Origin: a virus
Virus record (IMG/VR): IMGVR_UViG_3300009183_008543
Span: 72,407 to 136,406 of that record
DNA length: 64,000 nucleotides
Strand: one strand, 5' to 3'
Below are positions 2,377 through 29,662 of this stretch, one piece after another. Position 1 is the first letter of the stretch. Each line of letters opens with the position of its first letter. Made by a program: the position numbers and the translations under genes. A model generated the notes under the pieces. The model was not told the origin of the DNA. It saw nothing but the letters and a program-made list of their open reading frames with translations, and did not search any database.

Positions 2377-2377
2377 T

Positions 2378-3508
2378 TTATACTTTCCTCCACCAATAAT
2401 CTAGTTTTTCTGTGTTCATTCTCACCATGTCGGGATTGTCTATCATTGCTATTTTTGTTTCAAAATTTCCAGATGTAATTTCTTGAATTGCTTCTTTGGC
2501 AACTTTAATTCCTTGATCTTCGTCATTTGTCAATTTGAAAAAATTTGCAATAACTATCTTCTTTTTGTCATAGTCAGTAGTCAAAATAACACGCATTCCT
2601 TCCTGACCATGACCAACTAATTGATCTGCACTCTCGAAAAGTATCCATGGTGTTTTTACCATTGATGCAAGGCGAGTTGATGCTGTGTAAAACTGTATAG
2701 TAAATTTACATTGAGATAATATTGCCAAAGTAAACTCTAAATCTCTTGCCTCTTGCCTATTTGTAAAATCAACTATTGAATCATCTGGACATGGATATAC
2801 ACTTTGTTTTTCACCCATCCAAATTGGGTTATATCCCATCGATTTAAGCAAATTGATAAGGCTCTTATAAAATTCAATACTTAAATTTCTTCCATATCGC
2901 TTTCTGTTTCTAGCAAAAATAGCAACAGAATTTTCTCGCATGATAAGTTTCGCTTGTTCCTTCTTGCCTTCGCTTGGTTTTGGCGTTGAAACAAATCTTT
3001 TTTTACTTACACCCAAATCACCAAACAAAGGCTTCACCAAATTGGTGCTTGAACATTTATCACACTTTGTATCAATGTGATTGTGCGATACAAAATAATT
3101 CTTACATTCAGTGCAAAAATATTGCACACACAATTGAGCCATAGAACTGCCAGTAACCACACGACCAAATTGACTTAACTTAATTTCAAACTTACTTATA
3201 TTTCTTGAATCATTACGAAAAGCATCAGAATATTCACGCAACCATTGGTGGTCTTCATCTAACTCCCAATACTCATCAGCTATCTTACTATAAAGAAATT
3301 GTCTTCCATACCAACCGACCACTATCACATAACAATCTGGATTTGCATGAATTATTTGAGGCAAACAAAAGCATATTCCTATAGTCTCGACTCCAAATTC
3401 GTAAAAAGATGGAACCAACAATATCTTCCTGTTGTCGGTTGGTTTAACTCTATTGGTAAATTTATGAATGTGAAAGTTAAGAGATTCTAACTTTCTTTCT
3501 GGTATCAT
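2378..3508 (-). CDS. putative glycosyltransferase (family 9-like) with a Zn-ribbon insertion
   Basis: Similar layout to the neighbouring gene (IADEYW, FYKSLINLLKSMGYNPIW, TASTRLASMVKTP) with CTEC...CDKC insert. Start moved to MIPERK (3508) because a separate ORF occupies 3553-3732. Confidence 0.45.
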   Translation of the reverse strand: MIPERKLESLNFHIHKFTNRVKPTDNRKILLVPSFYEFGVETIGICFCLPQIIHANPDCYVIVVGWYGRQFLYSKIADEYWELDEDHQWLREYSDAFRNDSRNISKFEIKLSQFGRVVTGSSMAQLCVQYFCTECKNYFVSHNHIDTKCDKCSSTNLVKPLFGDLGVSKKRFVSTPKPSEGKKEQAKLIMRENSVAIFARNRKRYGRNLSIEFYKSLINLLKSMGYNPIWMGEKQSVYPCPDDSIVDFTNRQEARDLEFTLAILSQCKFTIQFYTASTRLASMVKTPWILFESADQLVGHGQEGMRVILTTDYDKKKIVIANFFKLTNDEDQGIKVAKEAIQEITSGNFETKIAMIDNPDMVRMNTEKLDYWWRKV

Positions 3509-8560: not shown

Positions 8561-11278
8561 TTATTCCTCTAAACACTTTTCAAATTGTTTCAAAACTTCA
8601 TCATCCGTTTGATATTTTTCATCATCAGAGGCAGGGTTTTTCAACACAATAACCCTAAAATCTAACTCCTTAGTTGGATATTTCTGTTGCCATCTTTTGT
8701 TTGGATCTCTCAGATTCCTTTCTAATGAATACCCATTAAATCCTCCAGATGGCGGAGAAAGCCTCACTCTAAGTAAGTTATCTTTCTTTAATTCTTCTTC
8801 CCATCTAAAAACATCTTCTTCCCAAAAGAATATTCTGTTTTTTTCTCCCATAGCATCTTCGGCTTCTATAGAGATATAATCTTTTCCATTTTTGGTTTTG
8901 TTTTTTTTTGTAGACAAAACTTTAATCTCGACAGGAACAATGCAATTTTCATGTTCCCGCAAAATTTGAAATGTATACCCCTTAAAATCAGAGCTTTTCT
9001 CCAAGTCATGTTCCCATGCAAATCCATAATATTTCAACTCACAAGATGAAACGCTTCTCAATTCTTTGGCAAATGTTTTATCTATCTGATGATCATCGGA
9101 ATTGAAATCAACAAGTTTTGGCAAATCAAAAACCTTAGATTCATCAAACTTTTTAATCGCCCTTTGTCTTCTTGCCCATATTTTTTTCAATTCTTTTAAC
9201 TTATTGTAAGTTTTCTTGACCAACATTTTTTTATAAAATCTTTCAGTCTGAACTTCTACAAAGTCATCAGTGCCTTTGACCTTAATATATTCAACCTCAA
9301 TTCTTCTTTCTCCAGTAGTACTTTCGACAATTTTTTCAGTTTCTATGATTTCATCAATATCATATTTTTTCCATTCTGGATCATCGAAAACATTATCGCC
9401 AACCAAATCAGTTAACTTTCTAGATTCTCCAACACAAATTTTAGAAAAATCTTCTTCGTAATTTTCCATGCCGTCTATAAATCTTTTTCTCTTGTCCTCT
9501 ATTTTTTTAACAGCAGATTTATAATGTTCGTAAAATTTCCAAAGCGTAATTGGATCAGCATCTTTGAAGCAACGCAATCCAACAAGTGCTTTTAATATGC
9601 TAGCATCTGTTCCAAACTTAAAAAGAAAATCTTCAAAATTTGCATATGGCTGATTATCAACAATTTTTTTCGCTGGTATTTCTCCTACGCCTTTAATGTT
9701 TGACAATCCATAATAGATAACATCATCAACAAGAGAAAAGGTTTCTTTAGACTTATTTATATCGACCTTTTCCATCTCAACATCATGCCGTCTTGCCTCT
9801 ATCTTGTAGTCCTTTATTTTATCGCTCAATGTTTCGCAGCTAAGAACAGCAGCGTAAAATTCTTGAGGATGATGAGCCTTTAGATATAATAATCGAGAAG
9901 AAACATAGGTATAAGCAACGGAATGACTCATATTGAAGCCATATTCTGCGAAAGATTTTATCTGTTCCCACAAGCTCTGAACTTCTTCCTGAGTAGCATC
10001 TAGATTTTTTTGTCCATTTTCAATAAACATAATTTCATATTTCTTAAAAGCTTCTGCCTTCTTTTTAGAAATAGCTTTTCTTACAACTTCACAATCTCTT
10101 AAAGGAATTTCACCAACAATATTTAAAATTTTCATAATCTGTTCTTGAAAAACCATAACTCCATATGTGTTTCCAAGAATAGGCTCAATCAATGGATGTA
10201 AGGTGTATTCTTCTTCTTCTTTTTTTCTTTTCGTATATCTTTCATGCATTAACATGCCAAGAGGACCGGGGCGATACAAAGCCGTATATGCAACTAAATC
10301 TTCAAATCTATCAACACCACCAGCTTTTACCAATCTTCTTATGCCTTCTGAATCAAATTGAAATATGCATTTCAAATCACCTTCATTTGCCATAGCCAAA
10401 GATTTTTGATCATTTCTCCAAGAAGAAACATCTGTCCAATCAGAGTCATCATTGTTAGCACATATGCTTTTTATATTTTTTCTTTTTTTGACCAATTCGC
10501 AACATGTAGATATTTGTTTTAAATTAGAAATTACAAGCAAATCGAATTTCACCAAACCTACTGGTTGTAAGTCTTGACCATTAAGACCTTCCACCCAAGC
10601 AGATGCTTGCGGATTATCTTTTCTTTTTACTAATGGAACCATATCGGACAAAGGAACTGAACTTATAATCAAACCTCCAGCATGTTGACCCATACCTCTA
10701 TTTCTATTGATTAACTTGTGTGCTGCCGCAGTTGCTTCGGGATGATCTTCACAATATTTTTTCAATTTTGGATACAATTCCATGGCAGATTCCCATGTCA
10801 TAACATTTCCATCTTCATCTTTTGAATCAAGATTCTTGGTAAGTTCAAGTATTTCTTCTCTAGGATTGTCGTGAACCCGTGCCATATCAATCAAGGCACT
10901 CTTCATTCCGAAGGTTGTATAGTTGCTAATATTACAAACATATTCTTCACCAAAAGTTTCTAAAGCCCACTTGTTTTTTAAATAATCACGAACTTCAGAC
11001 AAATAATCCACATCAATATCTGGCATATCGCCTTGGACAAATTTTGGATCAACATCGACATTAAAATCATCACATATACCAAGAAGCCAAGGAACAATGA
11101 TATTGTTTGTATTTTTAAATTTATTTTTCTCGCTAAATAATTTCAAAAAATATTCAGCTTTTCCTTGAACATCTATTTCTCGAAGCTCCCACTCAAGCCT
11201 TTTGCGATATTTTTCTCCAAGATTTCTTTTGTCGAAAACATGCCACAAACCTTTTTCTAATTTTTGAAAAGCATTCAT
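8561..11278 (-). CDS. dnaE: DNA polymerase III alpha subunit, C-terminal (catalytic) half of a split DnaE
   Basis: MPDIDVD, GQHAGG, GLVKFDLL, IFQFDS, ALYRPGPL, TYGVMVFQEQIM, FAEYGFNMSHSVAY, YGLSNIKGVG, C-terminal OB fold; no PHP domain. Confidence 0.93.
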   Translation of the reverse strand: MNAFQKLEKGLWHVFDKRNLGEKYRKRLEWELREIDVQGKAEYFLKLFSEKNKFKNTNNIIVPWLLGICDDFNVDVDPKFVQGDMPDIDVDYLSEVRDYLKNKWALETFGEEYVCNISNYTTFGMKSALIDMARVHDNPREEILELTKNLDSKDEDGNVMTWESAMELYPKLKKYCEDHPEATAAAHKLINRNRGMGQHAGGLIISSVPLSDMVPLVKRKDNPQASAWVEGLNGQDLQPVGLVKFDLLVISNLKQISTCCELVKKRKNIKSICANNDDSDWTDVSSWRNDQKSLAMANEGDLKCIFQFDSEGIRRLVKAGGVDRFEDLVAYTALYRPGPLGMLMHERYTKRKKEEEEYTLHPLIEPILGNTYGVMVFQEQIMKILNIVGEIPLRDCEVVRKAISKKKAEAFKKYEIMFIENGQKNLDATQEEVQSLWEQIKSFAEYGFNMSHSVAYTYVSSRLLYLKAHHPQEFYAAVLSCETLSDKIKDYKIEARRHDVEMEKVDINKSKETFSLVDDVIYYGLSNIKGVGEIPAKKIVDNQPYANFEDFLFKFGTDASILKALVGLRCFKDADPITLWKFYEHYKSAVKKIEDKRKRFIDGMENYEEDFSKICVGESRKLTDLVGDNVFDDPEWKKYDIDEIIETEKIVESTTGERRIEVEYIKVKGTDDFVEVQTERFYKKMLVKKTYNKLKELKKIWARRQRAIKKFDESKVFDLPKLVDFNSDDHQIDKTFAKELRSVSSCELKYYGFAWEHDLEKSSDFKGYTFQILREHENCIVPVEIKVLSTKKNKTKNGKDYISIEAEDAMGEKNRIFFWEEDVFRWEEELKKDNLLRVRLSPPSGGFNGYSLERNLRDPNKRWQQKYPTKELDFRVIVLKNPASDDEKYQTDDEVLKQFEKCLEE

Positions 11279-18600: not shown

Positions 18601-21600
18601 ACTTGCAAAGACGGAGCTTGCACGGGTTGCCCTTCTCCATGTGCCGAAGACGAATCGTGCTGCGAAGGAGGAACGACATGCTGCAAGGTCTGCTGTAATG
18701 ATGGGTGTTGTGCGGATACCGATCATTGCGGAGAAGGTGGTGCATGCACTCCATGCGAATGTACCGCTGGACAAACCTGCTGCGGTCCTAATTGTTGCGA
18801 TCCGGGAAAAGAATGCTGTGGTTCTGGAAGTAGTGCAACATGTTGCACCGGAGATCAATACTGCGATGGAACTGGACACTGCGCATCATGCAACCCAGTA
18901 TGCTACCCGAACGAAACATGCTGCGGTGCGTCTGGATGTATAGCAAACAAGTGTGGCGACTGTCCTAATTCGTGTCCAGAAGGAATAGTTTGCTGCGGTC
19001 TTCCTCACCACGAGGTGTGTTGCGGCGAAGGTCAAACTTGTGTCGATAATAAATGTTACGGATGTACGCCTCCTTGTTCGGAAAGTCAAGATTGCTGCGA
19101 TGAGGTGTGTACCGAACTTGGAACCGACACAGATTGTACTGGTTGCGGTGCAGCTTGCGGAGAAGGAACAAAATGTTGCGGTGGCTCATGCATAGATGTG
19201 ATGGATGATGTGAACAATTGTGGTGGTTGCGGTGTCGTGTGCGAGGAAGATGGTGCAACTCCTCTTTGCTGCGATGGAACTCCGACAGCAAATGGAACGA
19301 ATGAAAATTGCTTGAGTTGCGGAGACACAGCCGATCCAGACAATGCGACAAACCCTACATCATGCTGTCCTAAAGCAGTTGTTGTTGCTGGCGCTCCAGA
19401 CACCTCGACTTTCTTTGTTACCGCTACAAACAGTGACGACAAGAATTGCGGTGGTTGCGGAAATGTTGCTGACACATCGCCACAAGTGCAAGAAAAATGC
19501 TGTGCGGGTGAAATCGTTAGCCTTTTGACTGATCCAGACAACTGTGGAGGGTGTGGCGTTAGGGTTGTTGATCCTATGAGTTGCTGTCCAAGTTGGGGTC
19601 CGCCAAATCAGTTTGGCGATCTACCAACACCAACCTCTGGTCCAGTAAACACACAAACAGACAACGACCATTGCGGCGGTTGCAACATCCCATGCAATCC
19701 AATAGAAACTGGTGATGACTGCCCACCTCCCGGCGCTCCACCAACGACAAAATGCAAGGATGGCACATGTGTGCCATGCGGAACATGCAAGCTTCCGACA
19801 GAACAACAACAAGCACAATTGTTGGGATCTCAACCAACTGTATGGGGGTCACACACGACCATACCATGCACCTATGACGGATGTCCTATGCCGGTAACCG
19901 ATCCGCCAACTCCTGCCCCTCCGGGGAAAACATGCTTCGGTGGCTGTGACTACAAAGCGGTAGGAAATGTTGGAAACCTGTCATGGGAACTGGTTGGTTG
20001 CGAATGCTACGACTCTTGCACACTTCCAGAATGCAACGCCTCAAATCCACATGCCACTCCATGTCCAAGTGTTGGAACCTGTTCTGGAGAAGGACCTTGC
20101 GGCGGATGCCTTTATGACGACTATGACCATCCTTCTGCATACAAATGCTTCGCGCCATGGGGTCATGATACTGTTAGCTGCGGGAGTCTCTATAACTATA
20201 GTAGTACATTTGGCTATTGCTGTACGAAAGACGCAAATCATCCAAATGGCGGAGTTCTATGTCTTAGTGGCAGTTGTTCAGGTGCTGCGGGAGACTGCGA
20301 ACCTTGCGGCGGATCATGTGCCGCAGGACTTACATGTTGCGGGGTTTTTCCGAATGATGTGTGTTTGAACCTGAAAACGGATGAAAGTCATTGCGGATCA
20401 TGTACGAATGTTTGTGCCGCAGGAGAGACATGCTGTAATAGCTCATGTAAAAATACCAACACAGACAATAACAATTGTGGCGGTTGCGGTATAAAATGCA
20501 GTGGAGTTTCGGAATGTTGCAATGGCAGCTGCAAAGTTCTAAACACTCCAACTAATTGTGGTGCTTGCGGAATAGTATGTACTGTCCTTGAACCACTCTG
20601 TTGCAACAATAACTGCACACCGTCTGATGAATTCAACTGCGGAGGGTGCGGAAGAACATGTGATGCTGGTGAAAAATGTTGTGATGGTGAATGCACAGAG
20701 GTGATGGGCGATGACGAATCTAACTGCGGTGATTGTGGCTTTACTTGTGCTTCTAGTGGAACTTGCTGCTCTGGCGAATGTATCGAAAACCAATGCGGAA
20801 CATGTCCTACTGCATGTACCGAAGGTCAGGGATGTTGTGGTACGCCTCCAAATCTAACTTGCACCGATCTTGGAACAGACGAAAACTGTATCAGTTGTGG
20901 CAATGCTTGCGCTGCAGGAACGAAATGTTGCTTTGATGGAGTTGAAAACTTATGCATATCAGTAATGGGTGCTGATAAAAATAACTGTGGCGATTGTAAC
21001 ATAATTTGTGAAAATAATGAACGATGTGAAGACGGTGTATGCATAAATTTAAGTGAAGGGTGTGATCCGGAATGTGTTGAGGGAGAAGAATGTTGCGAAG
21101 GAACTGCCTGTTGTAGTCTGCCAGAATTTCAATGTTGCTCTGGCTCATGTACTGCCGTTTTCTCTTTCCAAACAGATAGTTCCAACTGCGGAAGTTGTGG
21201 AAACGCTTGTGCTGCTGGCGAGCAATGTTGCAATGGCGATTGTATTGCCACTAGCTCTTTCCAAACAGATGAATCTAATTGCGGAACTTGTGGTAACGCT
21301 TGTTCCGGAAGCCAAACTTGTTGCTCTGGCTCATGTATCGCCACTAGCTCTCTCCAAACAGATGAAGCAAACTGCGGAACTTGCGGAAACGCTTGTGGTG
21401 CTGGTGAAACATGTTGCTCTGGTGTTTGTAAAGCACTTCAAACAGATGAAGCTAATTGCGGAACTTGCGGAAACGCTTGTGGTGCTGGTCAAGAATGTTG
21501 TAGTGGTGTTTGCAAAGCCGTACAAACTGATAGTTCCAACTGCGGAACTTGCGGAAACGCTTGTTCCGGAAGCCAAACATGTTGCTCTGGATCATGTATC

Positions 21601-23571
21601 GCCACTAGCTCTCTCCAAACAGATGAAGCAAACTGCGGAACTTGCGGAAACACTTGTTCCGGAAGCCAAACATGTTGCTCTGGATCATGTATCGCCACTA
21701 GCTCTCTCCAAACAGATGAAGCAAACTGCGGAACTTGCGGAAACGCTTGTGCTGCTGGTGAACTATGTTGTTCTGGTGTTTGCAAAGCCGTACAAACAGA
21801 TGAAGCTAATTGCGGAACTTGCGGAAACGCTTGTGCTGCTGGCGAACTATGTTGTTCTGGTGTTTGCAAAGCCGTACAAACAGATGAAGCTAATTGCGGA
21901 ACTTGCGGAAACGCTTGTTCCGGAAGCCAAACTTGCTGCTCTGGATCATGTATCGCCACTATCTCTCTCCAAACAGATGAAGCAAACTGCGGAACTTGCG
22001 GAAACACTTGTTCCGGAAGCCAAACATGTTGCTCTGGCTCATGTATCGCCACTAGCTCTCTCCAAACAGATGAAGCAAACTGCGGAACTTGTGGTAACGC
22101 CTGTAGTGCTGGCGAACTATGTTGTGGTGGTGTTTGTAAAATCGTACAAATAGATGAAGCTAACTGCGGAACTTGTGGTAACACTTGTGGTCTTGGTCAA
22201 GAATGTTGTAGTGGTGTTTGTAAATCATTACAAACAGATGAATTTAATTGCGGAACTTGCGGAAACACTTGTGGTGCTGGCGAACTATGTTGTTCTGGTG
22301 TTTGCAAAACCGTACAAACAGATGTAATAAACTGCGGAACTTGTGGTAACACTTGTGGTCTTGGTCAAGAATGTTGTAGTGGTGTTTGCACAGTATTTCA
22401 AATAGATGAAGACAATTGCGGAAGTTGTGGAAACGCTTGTGCTGCTGGAGAAACTTGTTGTAATAGCGTTTGCACAGTATTACAAACAGATGAAGGTAAT
22501 TGCGGAATTTGCGGAAACATGTGTGGTGCTGGTCAAGAATGTTGCTCTGGTGTTTGTAAATCAGTACAAACAGATGAAGCTAATTGCGGAACTTGTGGAA
22601 CTGTATGTGGTGCTGGTCAAGAATGTTGCTCTGGTGTTTGCAAATCAATACAAACAGATGAAGAAAATTGTGGAACATGTGGAACTGCATGTGCTTCTGG
22701 CTACACATGTTGCTCTGGTGTTTGTAGAAACACAGCAACCGATCTCAGCAATTGTGGAACATGCGGAAGCTCTTGTAGCGGAACATGTTGCAACGGCTTT
22801 TGCAAAGCGACATATGAGGATGAATTAAATTGTGGTGATTGCGGAATAGAATGTGCTGTTGGCGAAACATGTTGCTATAGCATCCTTTTGAACACTGGAG
22901 TTTGCAAAGCCGTACTAACAGATGAAGCTAATTGTGGAACTTGTGGAAACACTTGTGCTGCTGGTTACACATGTTGCTCTGGTGTCTGCAAAGCACTTCA
23001 AACAGATGAAGCTAATTGCGGAACTTGCGGAAGTGTATGTTCTGCTGGCTACACATGTTGTGATGGTGTCTGCAAAGCACTTCAAACAGATGAAGCAAAC
23101 TGTGGAACTTGCGGAAACGCTTGTGCTGCTGGAGAAACTTGTTGCTCTGGTGTTTGTGCAAATACAGAAACAAGTTCATCTAATTGTGGATCTTGCGGAC
23201 ACGCTTGTGCTGCTGGAGAAACTTGCGAAGAAGGAATTTGCTCTCTGCCTCCACTAACAATAAAATTAGTTTTCCGTGCTTTCGCATGTGCAAGTAATTT
23301 TTCAAATCTTTCAAGTGAGCTTTCTGCTGGATCTAGAAGTGTTAGCTTCACAATCACTGTCAGTGGAACTACTTTTGCCAGTGGTTCTGTTTCAAACATT
23401 GGACCCGGAGGAGTTGCAGCAACCTTAGCATCAATTACGATTCCAACAGGAACATCATTTAATATAAATATAAGTGGATATGCTGGATCTGCAATTATTG
23501 GTAGTACTAGAGCATCTGGTCAACTGACTTATACTGGTGCTGTTAAAACTGCAGATAATAATGCATGTTAA
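15607..23571 (+). CDS. giant cysteine-rich repeat protein, 2654 aa (Stig1-like CxDxxTDxxNCGxCGxxC repeats)
   Basis: Dozens of 6-Cys modules such as QTDEANCGTCGNACAAGELCCSGVCKAV; Cys-poor beta-rich C-terminal ~100 aa; no obvious signal peptide. Confidence 0.85.
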   Translation: MIDPKLVENWNIIFALADKACGHFATYEAIVLVPRPCTGGSSAYWTLGTSCPDGCTSSPPSELPTNPPCDPNYPDNGTENDIIGCCGGIVEVECTGTCCNCGGVQCEPSETCCDNVCVDLQTDHDHCGGCPIVCEPSESCKNGVCKGACASSNCSWTWSEGCQADCAYVLLDGVYVQNQFCTEGSNCICPAAPAVTESSPLYVYISCVGNPRPSGVWSQTSTCPQGCTCPEEAPTTNGTTNGQVITHECVSCSPPCGEGQDCCGGECKNIYEDSNNCDGCGNVCPEATPTCCNGECCVSNNCCSVDGTNTCIDVMNDPNHCGDCITFCSGPETTTPQKCCHGECKFTETDNENCGSCDFPCPVGYTCCFGVCKELYGDDRLNCGDCGKTCPVGEFCKDGNCVDPCTLEECSYTWDAQTCTFMYNNPNGYKICSGTAVMKWVPTGPPSDPDSITGTCPGRWDTVVPCEYSDNCGCINGYGFEQTIGPCWEYTQECYCGQRNDVITPCGAIFPVLDPVIGWAGGTWEQLTDCDGCPKPVDPPAIPACMGQTYSFNCAGSWIYRPCPSCVCPINEPLREGTPNEKVSSPCKNCDPACGANQKCCNHVCKNILTDVRNCGDCGRDCGSAAGTACCRGTCVNTLTEELYCGGCNTVCAWSETCCNGFCKDTHTDPANCGSCGHPCAAGEVCCNSFCVNTNTDRNNCGSCPFVCPNADKCIDGRCVPCDPPCLEAGTACCNNSCIDILSDENNCGGCNIPCAGKCCNGSCVLDLNTMYNCGDCGIACPQMINQINLWQCCNGQCKNLKTDPENCGFCGRVCQEPPGDTFKVPKCFLGNCAEPECVCLGGETPGPDDVVFVSTCLGNTISCEGSCYFENVGGSWVLHEEPGGTGFSGSCGKEPDYTYCVDDKYACVGDIYYCVKPIEGQDMPTYCIPKPSFDPLAQALIGSYIGAENCAAGCSGDGSCPDGCANGLTCCNTECVDTQTDSANCGGCGGGPCASDETCKDGACTGCPSPCAEDESCCEGGTTCCKVCCNDGCCADTDHCGEGGACTPCECTAGQTCCGPNCCDPGKECCGSGSSATCCTGDQYCDGTGHCASCNPVCYPNETCCGASGCIANKCGDCPNSCPEGIVCCGLPHHEVCCGEGQTCVDNKCYGCTPPCSESQDCCDEVCTELGTDTDCTGCGAACGEGTKCCGGSCIDVMDDVNNCGGCGVVCEEDGATPLCCDGTPTANGTNENCLSCGDTADPDNATNPTSCCPKAVVVAGAPDTSTFFVTATNSDDKNCGGCGNVADTSPQVQEKCCAGEIVSLLTDPDNCGGCGVRVVDPMSCCPSWGPPNQFGDLPTPTSGPVNTQTDNDHCGGCNIPCNPIETGDDCPPPGAPPTTKCKDGTCVPCGTCKLPTEQQQAQLLGSQPTVWGSHTTIPCTYDGCPMPVTDPPTPAPPGKTCFGGCDYKAVGNVGNLSWELVGCECYDSCTLPECNASNPHATPCPSVGTCSGEGPCGGCLYDDYDHPSAYKCFAPWGHDTVSCGSLYNYSSTFGYCCTKDANHPNGGVLCLSGSCSGAAGDCEPCGGSCAAGLTCCGVFPNDVCLNLKTDESHCGSCTNVCAAGETCCNSSCKNTNTDNNNCGGCGIKCSGVSECCNGSCKVLNTPTNCGACGIVCTVLEPLCCNNNCTPSDEFNCGGCGRTCDAGEKCCDGECTEVMGDDESNCGDCGFTCASSGTCCSGECIENQCGTCPTACTEGQGCCGTPPNLTCTDLGTDENCISCGNACAAGTKCCFDGVENLCISVMGADKNNCGDCNIICENNERCEDGVCINLSEGCDPECVEGEECCEGTACCSLPEFQCCSGSCTAVFSFQTDSSNCGSCGNACAAGEQCCNGDCIATSSFQTDESNCGTCGNACSGSQTCCSGSCIATSSLQTDEANCGTCGNACGAGETCCSGVCKALQTDEANCGTCGNACGAGQECCSGVCKAVQTDSSNCGTCGNACSGSQTCCSGSCIATSSLQTDEANCGTCGNTCSGSQTCCSGSCIATSSLQTDEANCGTCGNACAAGELCCSGVCKAVQTDEANCGTCGNACAAGELCCSGVCKAVQTDEANCGTCGNACSGSQTCCSGSCIATISLQTDEANCGTCGNTCSGSQTCCSGSCIATSSLQTDEANCGTCGNACSAGELCCGGVCKIVQIDEANCGTCGNTCGLGQECCSGVCKSLQTDEFNCGTCGNTCGAGELCCSGVCKTVQTDVINCGTCGNTCGLGQECCSGVCTVFQIDEDNCGSCGNACAAGETCCNSVCTVLQTDEGNCGICGNMCGAGQECCSGVCKSVQTDEANCGTCGTVCGAGQECCSGVCKSIQTDEENCGTCGTACASGYTCCSGVCRNTATDLSNCGTCGSSCSGTCCNGFCKATYEDELNCGDCGIECAVGETCCYSILLNTGVCKAVLTDEANCGTCGNTCAAGYTCCSGVCKALQTDEANCGTCGSVCSAGYTCCDGVCKALQTDEANCGTCGNACAAGETCCSGVCANTETSSSNCGSCGHACAAGETCEEGICSLPPLTIKLVFRAFACASNFSNLSSELSAGSRSVSFTITVSGTTFASGSVSNIGPGGVAATLASITIPTGTSFNINISGYAGSAIIGSTRASGQLTYTGAVKTADNNAC
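21169..23240 (+). repeat. near-identical intragenic tandem array of 84-bp and 93-bp units
   Basis: caaacagatgaagcWaaYtgcggaacttgcggaaac recurs; 28-aa and 31-aa unit types are interspersed. Confidence 0.9.
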
Positions 23572-23605
23572 AAAAACAGGCTTGAAAATCAAGCCTGTTT
23601 TTTTT
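23571..23605. terminator. bidirectional intrinsic terminator
   Basis: aaaaaacaggcttga-aaa-tcaagcctgtttttt perfect inverted repeat between convergent genes. Confidence 0.85.
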
Positions 23606-24379: not shown

Positions 24380-25742
24380 TTACAAATCAAAACAAATAGA
24401 TCTACCGCCTCTAGCCTCAGACATGAATCGACTAAACAAAAGACCTTCATATACTGGATCTACATCAGTAATTCCAAGACAATAGCAAATTAAAGAACCA
24501 CAAGCACTTCCCCTTCCGGGTCCAACAGCTTGAGTTCCATCGCCACCTATATTTTCTCTGCACCACCTTCTTGCTTCATCAGTCATCATCTTTTGAATAA
24601 GAAAATATGTACTAAAACCTTTACGAGTTATAAGGCTCAACTCTTCAATTATTCTATTTTTATACTCTGTAGTCATTGGCAAATTACGATGTTTAAATCC
24701 TCTCAAGACTTCATCCTTAAGCCTTTGGTCACAATCTGGAAATATAGGTAGTTTCAGACTTCTATCTAATTCGACACCTTTTGCTTTACGACAAATCTCT
24801 ACTGTATTTTTTTTAGCTTCGCAAAAAATTTCATAAGGAATAATATCTTTATAATCACTCAGCCACTTTTCATTAAGTTCTTCCTCAGATTTCATCCATA
24901 GATTAGCATCCTGCAATTCGAAGAAATCCTGCATTGAATCTTCTTTCATTGCCCTTTGAATTTCTTTTAATGTTCTGTTGGTCTGAACCATCAACATAAG
25001 TCTTTGCAAGTGACTATCTTCTTTACGGCAATAATGACAATCTTGCGTAAGAATAATCTTCAATCCAAATTTCTGCTTTGCTTTAACAATAAAAGCGTCA
25101 TAAGGTTTTTGTTTAACAAAATCTAAAAGCATAATTTCAAGCAGATAATTTTCTTTACCAAACATCTGAATGTATCGTTCTATCATTTGAAATCCAGCTT
25201 CTTCTCCGCCAGCATCAAATGCTCTGCCAACTTCGCTGTTATAGCAACAACTTGTAAAAAATAAGCCTTCTTTATGCTTCTCAAGTTGTTCGTAATTTAC
25301 TCTTGGCTTTCTATAAAATCCTTTCGTCCAACCCCAAGATGTCAAACGAACAAGATTTTTATATCCAGTTTCATTGTATGCTATGGCTAATAAGTGTGGA
25401 CTTGCTCTCAGTTCCAATAATTCACTTGGAGAGAGAGATTCAGAAAATTTTTGCATGTCTGACAAAGAAGAGGATTGCGGTTGCAATCTATTTACATAAA
25501 GTTCCGCAGCGAATATGGGAGAAAGTTTATTTTTCCCATATTTATCACATATCTTTTCGCATGCTTTAATTTGTCTGGGAACTGCTCCCAACATGCCATG
25601 ATCACTAATTGTAAGAAAATTTTGATTTATTTCTGTAGCACGAACCGAATATTCTTCGCATGTTCCAAGCCCATCGAGGACGGAAAAATCGGAGTAACTA
25701 ATGAAGGTGGAGATGTTCAAAACCAACAATCTCCACCTTCAT
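24380..25742 (-). CDS. dnaE: DNA polymerase III alpha subunit, N-terminal PHP half of a split DnaE; frame interrupted after codon 14
   Basis: SDFSVLDG, ISDHG, AAELY, GFYRKPR, TQDCHY, GPGRGSACGSLICYCLGITDVDP, LLFSRF. True start MKVEIVGFEHLHLH (AAGGAG RBS, ATG 25742) lies in a different frame and ends at TAG 25700-25698. Confidence 0.9.
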
Positions 25743-25751
25743 TGTTACTCC
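25691..25751 (-). promoter_or_regulatory. long hairpin covering the dnaE-N RBS, start codon and premature stop
   Basis: GGAGTAACAATGAAGGTGGAGAT pairs with ATCTCCACCTTCATT(A)GTTACTCC: 23 bp, one bulged A. Confidence 0.85.
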
Positions 25752-25762
25752 TTTCGTAAATG

Positions 25763-26557
25763 TCATTGTTCAATCTCTTGTTTAGTTTGAAGCCAAATTA
25801 AAAATTCTTGCTTATCGTACTTTGCATTTTTACGACAATTCTCAGAAGCTGAAATTGGTCGTAAATTCTCCAGACAATTAATCAAAGACAAATCGTAAAT
25901 CTTATGATCTGAAAACGCCTTTATTGGGAAAATATGGTCAATATGCCACTTTCCATTTTTTACCTTTTCATAATTCTCATGATTGATTATATGATTTTGC
26001 AATTCTTTATAATCATAGCCAAGTAAAGCTGAAGTTTTAGACTTTTTTACTCTGCCAGTAACAGCCAAACTCATACTCAACAACTTATACGATCTCTGTC
26101 GAAATATCAAGTCCATTTTAAATTTCTCTCGATCATCAACCCATTCATAATGATTTTCTCCAGATCGTTTGGCAATTCCGCAATCCCAACATCTTTTACC
26201 TGTTCTGAAATTATTCCAAGAGATCTTTGCTTCTTTGCCACAAGAACAAATATATCGCATATTCTTGGAAGACTTTTCGTATTGATCCAAAAGCATACAA
26301 CCAACGGCTGCGAATTCAGATTTTATTTTTTCATGAGAATAAGAGAATCGTTCGCTTATTTTGCGAGAACCGCAATTTTTACATCTATTGCCAGATTTGA
26401 AACTATAAAAAACAATTTTAGATTCGTTTCCACAAGAACAACGATACCTCATTGGTGTGCGAGCATTGATATAAGTATCTTCTAATAATTTGCAACCATT
26501 TTTTAAGAAGAAACTTTGAACGAATTGATAGGTAAGTCTTTGACTTGAATATTTCAT
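25763..26557 (-). CDS. free-standing HNH homing endonuclease with repeated Zn-ribbon (CSCG...CxxC) DNA-binding units
   Basis: WHIDHIFP...NCLENLRPISASENCRK; two YxCSCG...RCxxCG units; GGAGG RBS before ATG 26557. Confidence 0.85.
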   Translation of the reverse strand: MKYSSQRLTYQFVQSFFLKNGCKLLEDTYINARTPMRYRCSCGNESKIVFYSFKSGNRCKNCGSRKISERFSYSHEKIKSEFAAVGCMLLDQYEKSSKNMRYICSCGKEAKISWNNFRTGKRCWDCGIAKRSGENHYEWVDDREKFKMDLIFRQRSYKLLSMSLAVTGRVKKSKTSALLGYDYKELQNHIINHENYEKVKNGKWHIDHIFPIKAFSDHKIYDLSLINCLENLRPISASENCRKNAKYDKQEFLIWLQTKQEIEQ

Positions 26558-26558
26558 A

Positions 26559-26587
26559 AAACCTCCAATATATTTAGTTGGAGGCTT
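26559..26587 (-). promoter_or_regulatory. RBS-sequestering hairpin with a late-promoter-like TAAATA in its loop
   Basis: aagcctccaa-CTAAATATA-ttggaggttt directly before the HNH ATG. Confidence 0.75.
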
Positions 26588-26630
26588 CACAATTATTTCA
26601 ATCTTTTAGACGGTTCTGCAGAATTAAAAG

Positions 26631-26863: not shown

Positions 26864-28441
26864 TTATTTCTTTTCTCGAATTCTTACATTAGCAGGATCA
26901 TTATCGAAACATTCGAATACGACATCAGTACCATCATGACCTTTGGTGGAAAGAAAAACATCATTTCCCCAAATGAATCTTAGACCAACCAATACATCTC
27001 GAACATAAGGCTCATGAAGCGGTCTGCCTTCAAATGTATGCTCAAGCATCAGATAGCCCTTACCACGATAATTAGGCTCTGTTAAACGAATATCTGGCAG
27101 TCCTCCATTTACATGGCGAGCCATCAACAATTTTTTTATCTTATTGTAATCATGACTTTCAAGAATCGTCTCTCCGCTTGGATAACGCTTATGTTCAAAG
27201 TATTCTTGTTCTCGACAGAAATCCTCAGTAAAAAATTCATGTATTAAAGTTAGATCATCGTAATACTTTCTAACTTCAAAAATCTTTTCCTTACCAAGCA
27301 TTGCCTTGGTATCCCATTTTTCTTTCTTACTAGAATTTGTGCAATCATCCCATTCATTGCCGAATTGACCTTTATCCCAACGATTGCGAATATCGGACAA
27401 AAGATTATATCCTAGCTTATAAGGATTGGTGCTATATTTTCCACCAAGAACACCCATCTTGTGTGCAGCGTATTCAATGATTCCAGAATCATGAGTCTTT
27501 TGACCCAAGCCGACATAACCCTGTTCTGCCATGATAACATGGTCAGTCATAGAAGCCCAGCCCTCGTTTAATACTTTGGTTTGTCTCTGTGGGAAAAAAT
27601 AAATTGATTCTTCATAGATCATAGACATGATATCTTGTTGCCAAGGCTTAAGTGGAGCATTATCACGCAAAAATCCAAATATATCTTTAACTGGTTCTAT
27701 AAAAAATCCAAGTTCCTCTGCAAGATCTTTATCTTTTACCTTTTCATTTTCTCTTTCTTTGAACTCTTTTGTGTTGATGTAATTATCCATATAGAAGCGA
27801 TCACTATCAACTTTAAGTCTTTTTGGAAATCTATAATTTCTTTTATCAATAATATTTCTATCTTTGATAACTTTTTGATGCCAAGCCGATGCTCCATCAA
27901 CCAAAGTATCGATGCGAAGTAAATAATCAAGAAATTCAGTAACCTTTTCCTTGCCCCATCTAGCCATATATTTTTTAATACGGCTACTATGATTTGCCAT
28001 GTTGTTCAACATGTTTGTATCAGTAGCAGAAAAGTGAATATTATTTTTAAAGAAATCATTATGACCAGTGGCGTGAGCGATAACAGTCAGATGATCCAAT
28101 AATGTGTTGCTATCTAAGCAATAGATGTAACATGGCGATGTATTGATTACCATCTCATATATTTTATGCATTTGATTTTCATATCCACGCTGCAATTCTT
28201 CATATTGCATGCCAAATGACCAATGTGGATATCGTACTGGAAAACCACCATACGCTGCTACTTCGGATATTTCATCGTAGGTAAGAAGCTGCACTACGGT
28301 TGGATAAAAGTCCAAACCCCAATCTTTACAAACATTCAAAATTATTTGAGCATATTCTTTTAATTGTTTTGGAAGCTGAACTCCGGGAATTGTGTTATCG
28401 CCAATAAGAAGTGAAGAACCATGCATGAACTTATTAGACAT
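26864..28441 (-). CDS. spoVR: SpoVR / YcgB family protein
   Basis: GGFPVRYPHWSFG, KIYEMVIN, AHATGHNDFFKNN, QTKVLNEGWAS, NPYKLG. Confidence 0.95.
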   Translation of the reverse strand: MSNKFMHGSSLLIGDNTIPGVQLPKQLKEYAQIILNVCKDWGLDFYPTVVQLLTYDEISEVAAYGGFPVRYPHWSFGMQYEELQRGYENQMHKIYEMVINTSPCYIYCLDSNTLLDHLTVIAHATGHNDFFKNNIHFSATDTNMLNNMANHSSRIKKYMARWGKEKVTEFLDYLLRIDTLVDGASAWHQKVIKDRNIIDKRNYRFPKRLKVDSDRFYMDNYINTKEFKERENEKVKDKDLAEELGFFIEPVKDIFGFLRDNAPLKPWQQDIMSMIYEESIYFFPQRQTKVLNEGWASMTDHVIMAEQGYVGLGQKTHDSGIIEYAAHKMGVLGGKYSTNPYKLGYNLLSDIRNRWDKGQFGNEWDDCTNSSKKEKWDTKAMLGKEKIFEVRKYYDDLTLIHEFFTEDFCREQEYFEHKRYPSGETILESHDYNKIKKLLMARHVNGGLPDIRLTEPNYRGKGYLMLEHTFEGRPLHEPYVRDVLVGLRFIWGNDVFLSTKGHDGTDVVFECFDNDPANVRIREKK

Positions 28442-28459
28442 CTTATAAATCCTTAAATT

Positions 28460-29656
28460 TTACTTTGATTTTTGAGTACCCATCAAACTTTTAATTGCAT
28501 CTAAAATTTGATTATTTCTAATTTCATCATCACGCATATTCGGATCATTAGGATTTCCATTTCCAAAGTTAATTTCGGTGGTACGAATATTATTCTTATC
28601 AAGCTCTCCACTTTCCAACGCCTTATCGACATGATACTTAACACTATTGGTATAGTTGTAAGGCAAAATTTGTGTGATCCCGACTAAATTAATATCCTTT
28701 TCTGGAAATGATTCTTTTAATGTGTTGATAAATACTTGATTATCATCGCCCCAATTATCTCCATCCGTAAAGTAAAAAACATAAATGTTCCACTTTTGCG
28801 GAGGGTATCTATTCTCAAATTGCTTTTGAATAAATTTCAAAGCAGAAGAACAAGTTGTTCCTCCACCATATCGGTAGTTATAAAACTTTTCTTCATCTAC
28901 TTCCATGGCAAGAGAATCGTGCCACACAAAAAGTCGATCAACTCTTTTGTAAAATTGTCTAATCCAAACATCAATCCACCAAGCCATATCTGAGACGATC
29001 TCGCATTTAGCTTGATCCATCGATCCAGATCCATCACGGGCATAAATGATCAAAGCATTGCTAGAAGGAACTTTAACTTCTTTATATTGCCTATAACGCT
29101 TGTCACGCTTAATTGGCTTGATTGTCTTCATGGGCATGCTAAGACCCGGAACTATTTCAAAATTATTAGCAGTTCCATCTGCACATTGCCTTTTTAAAGC
29201 TTCGATAAAAGTTCTTCTATTATGACGCAAAGATTCGGGACCAACCAAAGATATATTATTATATTTGATTTTTACTTCATCGAATGTATCATTTACTTTT
29301 GGCTTTAAATTTGGCAATTCCAGTTCATCTTGCATGAACTTCAATACAGTTTCCAAATCAAGACTTACGGTGATTCCTTCACCTTCATCCTGAGTTGCTC
29401 CATTGCCCTTTCCTTTTTTACCCTTATCAATGACATCGCCATCCTTGCCTTTACCTCTGCCGATGCCATTGCCGTTATCACCATAAAGAATTTGAGGAAT
29501 ATCAATTTTTGGAATTGTGATAGAAATTTTACCTCGTTTGCCACGAGATTTTACTATCTGTCCAGATTTGATAAACTTTTTAAGTGCTTTACGAAGTTTG
29601 CCTGAGACAACATCTATAAAGTCTTTATGATCTTCTTCAATTCTGCGTGGACACAT
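28460..29656 (-). CDS. yeaH: YeaH/YhbH (DUF444) vWA-domain protein
   Basis: RDGSGSM, GGTTCSSA, YPPQKWNIYVFYFTDGDNW; position between prkA and spoVR. Confidence 0.92.
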   Translation of the reverse strand: MCPRRIEEDHKDFIDVVSGKLRKALKKFIKSGQIVKSRGKRGKISITIPKIDIPQILYGDNGNGIGRGKGKDGDVIDKGKKGKGNGATQDEGEGITVSLDLETVLKFMQDELELPNLKPKVNDTFDEVKIKYNNISLVGPESLRHNRRTFIEALKRQCADGTANNFEIVPGLSMPMKTIKPIKRDKRYRQYKEVKVPSSNALIIYARDGSGSMDQAKCEIVSDMAWWIDVWIRQFYKRVDRLFVWHDSLAMEVDEEKFYNYRYGGGTTCSSALKFIQKQFENRYPPQKWNIYVFYFTDGDNWGDDNQVFINTLKESFPEKDINLVGITQILPYNYTNSVKYHVDKALESGELDKNNIRTTEINFGNGNPNDPNMRDDEIRNNQILDAIKSLMGTQKSK

Positions 29657-29662
29657 GTTCTA

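Follow-up and report, generated by a model that had tools for sequence, protein, structure and literature searches.

Comparison with related sequences indicates that TAGTTAC, within the gene for the N-terminal part of a split phage DnaE, is very likely a genuine and selected 7-nt coding gap. On balance, we lean toward a short programmed translational bypass as the best reading of this gap, driven by pairing of the mRNA as it exits the ribosome and doubling as nuclease immunity. The hop and its efficiency are inferred, as are the landing rule and the target of the nuclease, and there is no RNA, protein, or reporter evidence for them.

The gap lies in a 64,000-nt stretch of DNA (referred to as the window; positions 72,407 to 136,406 of IMG/VR record IMGVR_UViG_3300009183_008543) from an uncultured giant lake phage in which dnaE is split into N and C genes. 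The record comes from a single metagenome and represents an incomplete genome (CheckV 28%). The features of the locus are as follows.

8561..11278, minus strand: dnaE-C, the second part of the split polymerase (Pfam), with the PDIDVD catalytic motif, fingers, and HhH domain
24380..25693, minus strand: dnaE-N coding segment 2, from SDFSVLDG to the stop (437 codons plus stop)
25691..25751, minus strand: putative 5' "driver" hairpin, with a 23-bp stem, one bulged A, and a 14-nt loop
25694..25700, minus strand: 7-nt coding gap TAG-TTAC (TAG at 25700-25698, TTAC at 25697-25694)
25701..25742, minus strand: dnaE-N coding segment 1, 14 codons (MKVEIVGFEHLHLH), from the canonical ATG to the putative take-off codon CAT
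25753-25748, minus strand: SD-like AAGGAG, followed by taaca and then the ATG
25743..25766, minus strand: possible N-terminal extension MTFTKGVT, 8 codons, from an in-frame ATG (25766-25764), with the AAGGAG inside
25763..26590, minus strand: free-standing HNH homing-endonuclease-like gene (PHROG 559 HNH endonuclease, 1.8e-17)

Segment 1 opens with the ATG at 25742-25740 and continues through AAG GTG GAG ATT GTT GGT TTT GAA CAT CTC CAC CTT to CAT at 25703-25701; frame 0 thus translates as MKVEIVGFEHLHLH and then meets a stop, the TAG, which would sit in the A site when take-off occurs. The gap ends in the triplet TAC. Past the gap, the +1 frame reads TCC (25693-25691) and then GAT TTT TCC GTC CTC GAT GGG, or SDFSVLDG, and segment 2 goes on to encode the PHP domain, followed by an initial portion of the pol III alpha domain (Pfam PHP, 7.1e-30; DNA_pol3_alpha, 1e-23). 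The HxH...DG motif, which we take to be the metal-binding start of the DnaE PHP domain (after the E. coli motif quoted in the first-pass annotation), is complete only when segment 1 is joined to segment 2. The listed TTG-started ORF (24380..25729) reads ...NISTFISYSDFSVLDG, without the histidines, and its Pfam PHP match begins only at profile position 6. Skipping exactly 7 nt (25700-25694) recreates, residue for residue, the N terminus of an uninterrupted ortholog, L005, which is 85% identical and opens with the same 14 residues as segment 1. Across the motif, FEHLHLHSDFSVLDG of L005 can be aligned gap-free with the solved structure of Thermus aquaticus DnaE (2hpi). No similar break was seen at the start of dnaE-C (11278), and two small ORFs downstream of dnaE-N matched no Pfam family. 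A megablast search of the locus against GenBank phages returned no match, and tblastn against the same phages returned only distant DnaE genes of at most 54% identity.

Several lines of evidence bear on the reality of the gap. The same cassette with an identical TAGTTAC is present in five other IMG/VR contigs, and at least half of the sampled words were present in 18 DNA runs (the word-share listing of RNA runs X19 and X20 is no evidence of expression). Between interrupted alleles, the downstream ORF has a dN/dS of 0.044 to 0.075 (pairs with measurable dS); this strong purifying selection indicates that the gene is not decaying. Across 11 interrupted-interrupted pairs, the 12 codons before take-off carry 1 to 5 synonymous and 0 or 1 nonsynonymous differences, and the frame-0 HLHLH codons show only synonymous changes among interrupted alleles. 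Related gaps are kept across lineages in which synonymous sites are saturated.

The break lies within a strong hairpin. Its 5' arm includes the SD, the ATG, and the MKVEI codons; the HLHLH codons fall in its 3' arm, together with the gap and the landing-side TCC. The core arms form a perfect 15-bp complement (25700-25714 with 25729-25743), and the sole bulge in the 23-bp stem is the A of the TAG. The hairpin has an MFE of -44 kcal/mol (z, -6.98), and none of 200 shuffles folds as well. Seventeen perfect hairpins of at least 11 bp occur in the whole 136-kb record, five of them with a stem of at least 15 bp; the dnaE hairpin is among the five, and the other four have loops of 3 to 6 nt with A/T-run flanks and are terminator-like. 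This genome-wide scan (perfect hairpins of at least 11 bp, 136 kb) found no second element of the same design. The hairpin also encloses TTG 25729, for which no SD is present.

The first-pass annotation, made from the sequence alone, had claimed that a frame with an RBS, an ATG, and 14 codons is interrupted by TAG-TTAC and continues as SDFSVLDG in the +1 frame, that the TTG ORF lacks the motif histidines, and that only the A of the TAG is bulged in a 23-bp stem. All three claims were confirmed. The annotation's further claim that the hairpin hides the RBS and the start held in part: the SD and the canonical ATG are covered, but the hairpin does not cover every possible start, and the upstream ATG at 25766-25764 lies outside it. 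This upstream ATG overlaps the stop TGA (25765-25763) of the HNH gene, and an in-frame upstream ATG, 20 to 24 codons before take-off, is found in 14 of 14 short-gap representatives examined.

Comparative sequence data show that the hairpin is under selection. Among 18 interrupted sequences, 84.9% of cells pair and double changes occur in 7 of 14 pairs; none of 500 shuffles reaches the observed value, and slid controls give 38 to 53% pairing. In 19 uninterrupted or TAA-hop sequences, pairing is 53.4%, a value reached by 462 of 500 shuffles. We then scored, for each class, how well the 15 nt that end at its own take-off pair with upstream sequence. Pairing energies were -17.9 to -23.4 kcal/mol in 26 short-gap sequences, -18.4 to -23.7 kcal/mol in 7 long-gap sequences, and -14.6 to -16.5 kcal/mol in 3 TAA hops, versus a median of -5.7 kcal/mol in 40 uninterrupted sequences. 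The 3' arm therefore follows each class's own take-off codon, and nearly all uninterrupted genes lack the hairpin; the exceptions are L087 and L088, which have a hairpin without a gap, and L018, which scores -16.5. The 8-, 5-, and 9-nt classes differ in outer pairing, and the gap is unpaired in several relatives. The function of the hairpin is inferred, and it might have another role, in initiation control or at the DNA level.

The window's gap belongs to a family. From 140 fetched loci, 131 could be anchored, giving 86 distinct junctions; nine without anchors were dropped (L060, L076, L096, L116, L124, L129, L137, L139, and L140). Distinct sequences rather than loci were counted because IMG/VR and metagenome collections share contigs. 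Forty-two junctions are uninterrupted, every one with a spacing of exactly 18 nt from the last His codon to DG, and 44 are interrupted. A short gap of 5, 6, 7, 8, or 9 nt follows HLHLH in 30 of the 86, covering all three frames. These gaps comprise 17 distinct strings, each of which starts with an in-frame stop (15 TAG, 2 TGA); the 6- and 9-nt gaps keep the frame yet still open with a stop. The remaining interrupted junctions carry 6-nt Leu-TAA-Leu hops (L042, L048, and L052), hairpin gaps of 40 to 48 nt, or a group I intron in the same motif (L054 and L037; Rfam RF00028, 102 and 91 bits). Natural variants include TGAAT, TAGCTAAC, Leu-TAA-Leu, and gaps of 41 to 47 nt. In the 46- to 48-nt gaps after LL, a stem-loop carries the take-off codon and stop in its 5' side. 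The L009, L073, and L097 types have a long gap after SD, and the class counts rest on by-eye sorting of these. Double gaps also occur in the motif, and all interruption types fall within the same 13 codons. L141 has a similar 225-nt insert after the SD codons (no Rfam scan).

On the tree, which has 42 rows, interrupted and uninterrupted alleles are intermingled, and at least 10 changes are required. In the 8-, 5-, and 6-nt and long-gap classes, the downstream frame offers no start codon that could be used. The last gap triplet is NAY, matching CAY at positions 2 and 3, in 12 of the 17 short-gap strings, one of them a perfect CAC; the other five end in CTT (twice), TTT, GTC, and CAA. The strings look related by descent, so the 12 do not represent 12 independent events.

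The HNH gene lies between spoVR and dnaE-N and abuts dnaE-N; its ORF matched no Pfam family. The same synteny without the HNH gene is seen in L003, L005, L007, and L028. HNH homologs were found by tblastn at 12 of 35 interrupted and 1 of 24 uninterrupted IMG/VR loci, in a search limited to 60 IMG/VR loci that left L062 to L141 outside. Many interrupted loci have no nuclease gene, and L031 is a counterexample, with an HNH homolog upstream of an uninterrupted site. In L054, an HNH gene 53% identical to that of the window lies directly upstream of dnaE, which has a group I intron in the same motif. That the gap confers immunity to the nuclease is possible, but the support is an association only, and cleavage is inferred.

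We propose the following sequence of events for the bypass. After translating 14 codons (22 from the upstream ATG), a ribosome would stall, with its peptidyl-tRNA-His paired to CAU and its A site occupied by UAG. During this stall, 14 nt of the hairpin 3' arm would fill the mRNA path from the P site to the exit, and the 5' arm and loop would already be outside the ribosome; this geometry is argued from general ribosome footprint sizes rather than from a calculation. The anticodon would then release, zipping of the hairpin would pull the mRNA a few bases through the ribosome, and the tRNA would re-pair on the near-cognate UAC, with decoding restarting at UCC. The predicted product, HLHLH|SDFS, is the canonical PHP metal-binding motif. 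There is experimental precedent for such a driver in T4, where pairing of mRNA leaving the ribosome has been proposed to drag the mRNA forward (bioRxiv 10.1101/2024.12.09.627546; 10.1101/2022.08.31.505936). At the DNA level, the gap would split the gene's most conserved stretch, the probable target of the neighboring HNH homing endonuclease, and we propose that this protects the genome from the nuclease it encodes. All three elements (gap, hairpin, and nuclease) would travel as one cassette, like the T4 gene 60 bypass with MobA. Some observations count against a hop. UAC is only near-cognate to CAU (positions 2 and 3 match, plus a G:U pair), five of the 17 gap strings lack a final NAY, and landing is fully cognate only in L075 (CAC/CAC) and the Leu-TAA-Leu hops; moreover, the nascent chain is short, at 14 to 22 residues.

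Other explanations account for less of these data. Frameshifting with the gap translated would give HLHLH-SY-SDFS by a +1 shift at CAU-UAG, and relatives would need readthrough of the stop or shifts of +2 or -1. A stalled P-site codon with a stop next to it in the A site is a classic +1 setting, the +1 frame is open from the gap onward, and the stall required is the same as for a hop. Against this, gaps of 5, 6, 7, 8, and 9 nt with the same hairpin and stop would require three mechanisms; the extra residues (SY, VY, N, and others) would vary inside a motif whose spacing is invariant in the 42 uninterrupted junctions and T. aquaticus DnaE; the stop is retained even in the in-frame 6- and 9-nt gaps; and CAU cannot re-pair in the +1 frame (AUU). 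A prfB-type SD about 3 nt upstream is absent, the sequence before CAU being CUCCACCUU, which is not an SD. We consider frameshifting unlikely. Less likely still is the absence of any recoding, with DnaE-N made from TTG 25729 without its first strand and HxH, or with a 14-residue peptide and the rest as separate chains. The window does contain the TTG-started ORF, and some DnaE PHP domains are catalytically inactive. However, the TTG codons arise merely because IVGFE is encoded there, several gap classes have no downstream start, the HLHLH codons vary only synonymously, and TTG 25729 is buried in the hairpin without an SD. Reassignment of TAG was also considered; it is unsupported by stop codon use, which is ordinary among long open frames (TAA 50, TGA 21, TAG 16), and could not mend a 7-nt gap in any case. 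ARAGORN found no tRNA, and hence no suppressor tRNA, in the window or the 136-kb record.

Removal of the gap from RNA by an unknown hairpin-guided micro-splicing or editing also seems very improbable. Relatives have group I introns in the same motif, and the presence of the 7 nt in mRNA has not been shown. On the other hand, no ribozyme or enzyme is known to excise 5 to 9 nt, the in-frame stop that invariably forms the first triplet of the gap is a signal for translation rather than for splicing, and the gap is unpaired in several relatives. An Rfam search of 25300-26100 gave nothing above threshold, only subthreshold matches to generic miRNA-like hairpins and no group I intron core. A DNA-level switch, in which quasi-palindrome template switching, slippage, or inversion yields an in-frame subpopulation (phase variation), is suggested by a stem perfect except for one bulged A, but we give it very little weight: removing the bulged A restores the frame only in this allele, outer pairing differs in 8-, 5-, and 9-nt relatives, inversion of the 14-nt loop leaves the gene out of frame, and all five independent assemblies carry the interrupted form, although contigs hide minority variants. 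An assembly artifact or recently dead gene might be suspected in an incomplete genome from one metagenome; it is all but ruled out by the five other contigs, the many runs, a dN/dS of 0.04 to 0.075, and the persistence of related gaps. The first-pass annotation had offered a 7-nt hop from CAU with UAG in the A site, a +1 frameshift, and template switching removing the bulged A, and had not excluded assembly error or recent inactivation. The hop is strongly supported by the ortholog match, the gap series in all frames, and a covarying hairpin that tracks take-off, although it remains inferred and nothing has been shown experimentally. The frameshift fits less well, having no explanation for 5-, 6-, 8-, and 9-nt relatives, as does template switching, which is specific to this allele; error and inactivation are excluded computationally by the contigs, DNA runs, and dN/dS. 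That annotation had also suggested aligning related dnaE-N 5' ends, in which we find that the hairpin covaries in interrupted genes and that, among short gaps, the stop is always kept and the length varies from 5 to 9 nt.

Beyond the short programmed bypass that we prefer, a bolder reading, which we would neither press nor dismiss, is that these genes form a second, independent phage family of programmed bypass with a minimal "spring-loaded" design, in which a lone upstream hairpin drives hops of 5 to 9 nt without a take-off stem-loop or cognate landing codon. The co-occurrence of short gaps, Leu-stop-Leu hops, 40- to 48-nt hairpin gaps, double gaps, and introns in one motif suggests that this family is diversifying fast and that, among giant phages of fresh water, it is in an arms race with HNH homing endonucleases. 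Programmed bypassing is known essentially from one well-studied bacterial/phage example (T4 gene 60 and its homologs) and one mitochondrial system. If bypass is the correct reading, its occurrence with minimal architecture in a gene other than that of T4 gene 60 would be a new aspect of a very rare way of reading a gene. The relatives would provide over 40 distinct natural variants, no two alike in their combination of gap length, stop codon, frame, stem-loop layout, and landing triplet, with uninterrupted sister alleles as built-in controls. What drives forward sliding, whether pairing of exiting mRNA is sufficient, and how closely the landing codon must match would become testable, and the link between homing endonucleases and recoding would reach beyond T4. 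There is also a consequence for annotation: these polymerase genes come out truncated or split from gene callers.

No description of bypass gaps in dnaE was found in the literature searched (supplements not opened), and 10.1101/2022.08.31.505936 notes that comparable bypassing was unreported in other phages. The closest comparison is the T4 gene 60/MobA bypass and its Myoviridae topoisomerase homologs (10.1101/2022.08.31.505936). As there, a discontinuous ORF lies in an essential phage replication gene, and the host gene is split; a take-off codon is followed by UAG (or UGA), a 5' stem-loop could form from exiting mRNA (its function here being inferred), and the element is associated with an HNH-type homing endonuclease and has a patchy, hit-and-run distribution in relatives. 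Placement of the take-off codon and stop in the 5' side of a stem-loop is shared only by relatives with 46- to 48-nt gaps after LL. In contrast to gene 60, the host gene is dnaE rather than a topoisomerase large-subunit gene, the gap is 7 nt rather than 50, and the nascent peptide is 14 to 22 residues rather than 46. Furthermore, in the window the upstream hairpin includes the take-off codon in its 3' arm and there is no take-off/A-site stem-loop, no SD-like element precedes landing, and the landing triplet is only near-cognate. Nothing resembling the gene 60 cassette, as described in 10.1101/2022.08.31.505936, was apparent, although no direct comparison was made, MobA included.

The mitochondrial "byps" of Magnusiomyces capitatus (10.1101/2022.08.31.505936; PMC7026636) likewise involve many independent, mobile-element-like insertions in essential genes, with bypass inferred by sequence comparison. 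They differ in being GC-cluster elements of 27 to 55 nt with matched take-off and landing codons, in having an unreadable sense codon in the A site, and in belonging to a eukaryotic organelle. In T4-like phages and cyanophages, "collaborative homing" pairs a free-standing homing endonuclease with a group I intron at its target. L054, with its HNH gene upstream and an intron in the motif, resembles this arrangement, whereas the window has a 7-nt untranslatable gap in place of the intron and no known splicing route. Finally, E. coli ribosomes can make short hops past a stop codon or a slow codon; this work, reportedly by Weiss, Atkins, and Gesteland, is summarized in 10.1101/2022.08.31.505936 (its references 5 to 8). 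Such hops share with the inferred dnaE hop the few nucleotides skipped, re-pairing of the P-site tRNA downstream, and a stop in the A site, and the 6-nt Leu-TAA-Leu gaps of L042, L048, and L052 have exactly the same form. Those hops are inefficient and unprogrammed, whereas the dnaE element is conserved, lies in an essential gene, and has a dedicated, covarying hairpin.

The interruption in dnaE-N, the gene for the N-terminal part of a split DnaE, lies in an AT-rich (~32% G+C), phage-like window of a 136,406-nt virus record (CheckV completeness, 28%). The features needed here are as follows.

25742, minus strand: canonical ATG of dnaE-N, preceded by SD-like AAGGAG and taaca
25742 to 25701, minus strand: the start ATG followed by AAG GTG GAG ATT GTT GGT TTT GAA CAT CTC CAC CTT CAT, ending in the take-off codon (CAT, 25703-25701)
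25700 to 25694, minus strand: the gap, TAG (25700-25698) and then TTAC
from 25693, minus strand: post-gap codons TCC (25693-25691) GAT TTT TCC GTC CTC GAT GGG
25763 to 26590, minus strand: HNH ORF of 275 residues between spoVR and dnaE-N (PHROG 559 "HNH endonuclease," 1.8e-17; no match in a Pfam search)
26864 to 31735, minus strand: prkA (AAA_PrkA/PrkA)-DUF444-spoVR block (Pfam), immediately preceding the HNH and dnaE-N genes
8561 to 11278, minus strand: dnaE-C, a separate gene with PDIDVD, fingers, and an HhH domain

The first-pass annotation described an HLHLH segment, TAG-TTAC, SDFSVLDG in the +1 frame, and a hairpin; all of this held when checked against the window's bases. Frame 0 reads MKVEIVGFEHLHLH and then stops. 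The mechanically listed ORF (24380..25729) starts in the +1 frame at a TTG within the IVGFE codons and reads ...ISYSDFSVLDG, without HxH; its Pfam PHP match (7e-30) begins only at profile position 6 and runs on into the pol III alpha domain, covering its first 98 positions.

To place this allele among its relatives, we collected 60 related loci (54 to 100% identity) from an IMG/VR scan and 80 more from one scan of metagenome contigs. Because these collections overlap, we counted distinct sequences rather than loci. The anchors, the HxHxH and DG codons, were both present in 131 of 140 loci, representing 86 distinct junction sequences; nine loci, truncated or too diverged, were left out.

Table. 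Classes among 86 distinct junctions (one group was sorted by eye)
Uninterrupted, all with exactly 18 nt between the last His codon and DG: 42/86
Short gap directly after HLHLH: 26/86
Short gap plus a second gap of 46 to 48 nt after LL codons: 4/86
Gap of 40 to 47 nt after H(S/T)D, containing a G+C-rich hairpin: 7/86
Gap of 46 nt after LL only: 1/86
In-frame 6-nt Leu-TAA-Leu insertion (CTT/CTC TAA CTT/CTA) after FSV: 3/86
Insert of ~225 nt in the same motif: 3/86

The short gaps occur as 17 different strings: nine are 8 nt long and five are 7 nt long, with single examples of 5, 6, and 9 nt. Every string, including the frame-keeping 6- and 9-nt ones, begins with an in-frame stop (TAG in 15, TGA in 2). 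Two of the ~225-nt inserts are hits to RF00028, the Rfam model for group I introns (locus L054, 102 bits; locus L037, 91 bits); the third, after the SD codons of locus L141, resembles them, a likeness only, without an Rfam scan.

The interrupted alleles share a distinctive hairpin. In the window its arms (25700-25714 and 25729-25743) are complementary at 15 of 15 positions, and the stem extends to 23 bp with the A of TAG as its sole bulge; the fold (-44 kcal/mol, z -6.98) was equaled by 0 of 200 shuffles. The whole record contains only 17 perfect hairpins of at least 11 bp, and the other four with stems of at least 15 bp have 3- to 6-nt loops and terminator-like A/T-run flanks. Across 18 distinct IMG/VR sequences gapped after HLHLH or H(S/T)D, 74-nt take-off segments fold at -20.8 to -39.4 kcal/mol (18/18), each with a stem joining the first codons to the HLHLH codons; this stem is absent from the corresponding segments of 16 uninterrupted sequences, whose folding energies are -7.8 to -18.5 kcal/mol.

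When the 18 interrupted sequences are aligned without gaps, 84.9% of cells are paired, and in 7 of 14 pairs both partners change (e.g., AAG/CTT to CAA/TTG or CAG/CTG, and GAG/CTC to AAG/CTT). Neither the pairing nor the covariation was attained by any of 500 shuffles, and slid controls pair at 38 to 53%. The same columns are 53.4% paired in 19 uninterrupted or TAA-hop sequences, a level reached by 462 of 500 shuffles. Some nonsynonymous changes in the 5' arm (K to Q) are matched in the 3' arm by synonymous changes of Leu codons; the hairpin, as RNA or DNA structure, is therefore selected in its own right.

Its position also follows the interruption. We computed pairing between the 15-mer that ends at a virtual take-off codon and the 50-nt stretch lying 8 to 58 nt upstream of this 15-mer. 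The pairing of every class peaks at its own take-off codon: at CAY for short gaps (n = 26; -17.9 to -23.4 kcal/mol), at GAY two codons later for long gaps (n = 7; -18.4 to -23.7 kcal/mol), and at the Leu codon for TAA hops (n = 3; -14.6 to -16.5 kcal/mol). Medians for uninterrupted sequences are -5.7 to -6.1 kcal/mol at the three positions. Separation is imperfect: the strongest uninterrupted score is -18.4, uninterrupted locus L018 scores -16.5, and loci L087 and L088 have the hairpin without a gap. These last two keep the start-versus-HLHLH pairing (ATGAAGATGGAGAT against ATCTTCATCTTCAT) in an uninterrupted dnaE and may represent a precursor or a precise gap loss. Short-gap alleles are 87% identical over the 36 nt before take-off (72% at third positions) and 60% identical over the 150 nt after landing (39%), compared with 69% (45%) and 61% (35%) in uninterrupted alleles; structural constraint, cassette spread, or both could account for the pre-take-off identity.

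As far as computation can show, an artefact or a pseudogene is excluded. The window's exact cassette and gap recur in five other contigs that differ elsewhere (L001, L002, L011, L030, and L032), and at least half of sampled words are present in 18 DNA runs; assembly error therefore does not explain the gap. The downstream ORF shows dN/dS values of 0.044 to 0.075 between interrupted alleles where dS is measurable (other pairs are synonymous-saturated), and the 12 codons before take-off differ by 1 to 5 synonymous and 0 to 1 nonsynonymous changes in 11 interrupted-interrupted pairs, which makes it very likely that the interrupted gene is alive. HLHLH is written with differing synonymous codons among cassettes. 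Exact removal of the gap gives residues identical to the start of an uninterrupted ortholog, L005, whose FEHLHLHSDFSVLDG aligns without gaps to KFAHLHQHTQFSLLDG of the solved Thermus aquaticus DnaE (2hpi). Nor could the downstream part generally be initiated independently, because the 8-, 5-, and 6-nt and long-gap classes have no ATG, GTG, or TTG in the downstream frame from the preceding stop to the motif, the motif's own Leu codon excepted; the window's TTG is a by-product of the IVGFE codons, found in the 7-nt class only. Some form of recoding is thus needed.

Frameshifting with translation of the gap is an unlikely form: it would demand three different mechanisms for cassettes with the same hairpin and stop, and would insert differing residues into a motif of invariant spacing. 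Removal of the gap from the RNA remains possible and, without RNA data, is not excluded; however, no system is known to us that removes 5 to 9 nt from RNA, and Rfam shows nothing at the site. A switch acting on the DNA itself is also improbable, as it fits the window's allele only. We consider it likely that a real, selected gap undergoes some translational recoding, and lean, by a narrower margin, toward an exact 7-nt hop. The first-pass annotation had proposed such a skip; comparison with relatives supports the recoding reading, and the hop itself is inferred.

The design of the element is, by inference, that of a short programmed bypass. With CAU in the P site, UAG would occupy the A site. 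The size of the ribosome footprint sets the geometry of the mRNA path: at take-off, 14 nt of the 3' arm, ending with CAU, would span the P site to the mRNA exit, with the 14-nt loop and the 5' arm already outside. Once the anticodon releases, each base leaving the ribosome could pair, pulling the mRNA forward by a few bases, the scale of the 5- to 9-nt gaps. The last gap triplet is NAY in 12 of 17 strings (UAY, 7; AAY, 3; GAC, 1; CAC, 1), so tRNA-His could re-pair at positions 2 and 3; the others end in CTT (twice), TTT, GTC, and CAA. We treat this as a pattern and not a statistic because the strings look related by descent. The window's UAC would add the position 1 G:U pair proposed in the first-pass annotation, which is consistent with the sequence, the landing being inferred.

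Both the SD and the canonical ATG also fall within the window's stem. In each of the 14 short-gap representatives inspected, an in-frame ATG sits 20 to 24 codons ahead of take-off, with AAAGGAG read as Lys-Gly; in the window, the HNH stop TGA (25765-25763) overlaps an ATG (25766-25764) in frame with the dnaE start and eight codons upstream of it. Ribosomes may load ahead of the stem, with their entry perhaps coupled to the HNH gene's end, and the canonical start may be repressed; both are inferences only. The HNH ORF's final residues and stop position differ between the window and contigs that are nearly identical elsewhere, owing to a 1-nt length difference in a run of A (AA versus AAA; window 25770-25780, L001 2940-2955).

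No part of the gene is more conserved than the HLHLH...DG motif, around which mobile elements cluster. Homologs of the window's HNH protein (tblastn) lie directly upstream of dnaE in 13 of 60 IMG/VR loci, 12 of 35 interrupted versus 1 of 24 uninterrupted (L031), a tally that counts five near-identical L001-type loci five times. L054 pairs an HNH protein 53% identical to the window's with its intron in the motif, L003 and L007 have the gap with only a small ORF between spoVR and dnaE, and L005 and L028 have neither gap nor HNH gene. The link is loose, since L031 is uninterrupted despite its HNH gene and many interrupted loci are nuclease-free. Interrupted alleles interleave with uninterrupted ones when 42 distinct DnaE-N sequences are placed on a tree, whose well-supported branches require 10 or more changes; within one tight clade the gaps measure 8, 5, 0, 6 (TAA hop), 6, and 8 nt. 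By analogy with MobA and gene 60, we infer a homing cassette with hit-and-run losses, in which the gap would break the nuclease's target; there are no cleavage data.

Other features of these loci were observed. SpoVR is the upstream neighbor of dnaE also in L003, L005, L007, and L028, and in L018 dnaE is immediately preceded by an ORF (1502-2599) with a Cas12f1-like TNB domain (TnpB-like, 3.6e-13). Intein-like insertions in dnaE-N start with Cys after ...IFA, near residue 72, in L031 (~1880-3000) and L053 (~1890-3000, ending ...VHN before Cys), and L057 has another insert (upstream of 3001) near residue 190. Giant-phage contigs L037 (6703-7061, 112 bits) and L057 (6338-6716, 110 bits) carry tmRNA genes (RF00023) a few kb downstream of dnaE-N.

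In the window the DnaE parts (8561-11278 and 24380-25742, minus strand) lie ~13 kb apart, and neither end carries an intein; the break falls immediately ahead of the catalytic PDIDVD motif, and DnaE-C starts with a second, degenerate copy of the segment ending DnaE-N. All relatives except L033, whose open frame reaches 839 residues, share the DnaE-N end, so the split is old and a separate matter from the 7-nt gap. Between the parts lies a 2654-residue ORF (15607-23571, plus strand) in a block of 44 to 47% G+C, versus ~32% around it. A perfect 16-bp hairpin with flanking A and T runs (23570-23604), between this convergent giant gene and small ORFs downstream of dnaE-N, is likely a bidirectional terminator.

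Manning and Atkins described topoisomerase cassettes only and noted the absence of any report of similar bypassing from other phages (10.1101/2022.08.31.505936); in the full-text literature searched, we found no paper on dnaE bypass gaps. An mRNA-pulling role has likewise been proposed for the 5' stem-loop and "extended stem-loop" of T4 gene 60 (10.1101/2024.12.09.627546; 10.1101/2022.08.31.505936). There, the take-off site lies 26 nt from the 5' side of the loop in the 5' stem-loop (10.1101/2024.12.09.627546); the corresponding spacing in the window is 25 to 28 nt. The relatives' long gaps after LL have the gene 60 layout, with a CTC take-off codon and stop in the 5' side of a perfect stem-loop and an A-rich tail, and the pattern among dnaE relatives is that of the hit-and-run losses described for MobA and gene 60. 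However, the gene differs, we see no likeness to the gene 60 cassette described in the preprint, and the window allele lacks a take-off stem-loop and a cognate landing codon. With the hop not demonstrated, we infer on these grounds that the dnaE element works like gene 60 and MobA but stands outside that family.
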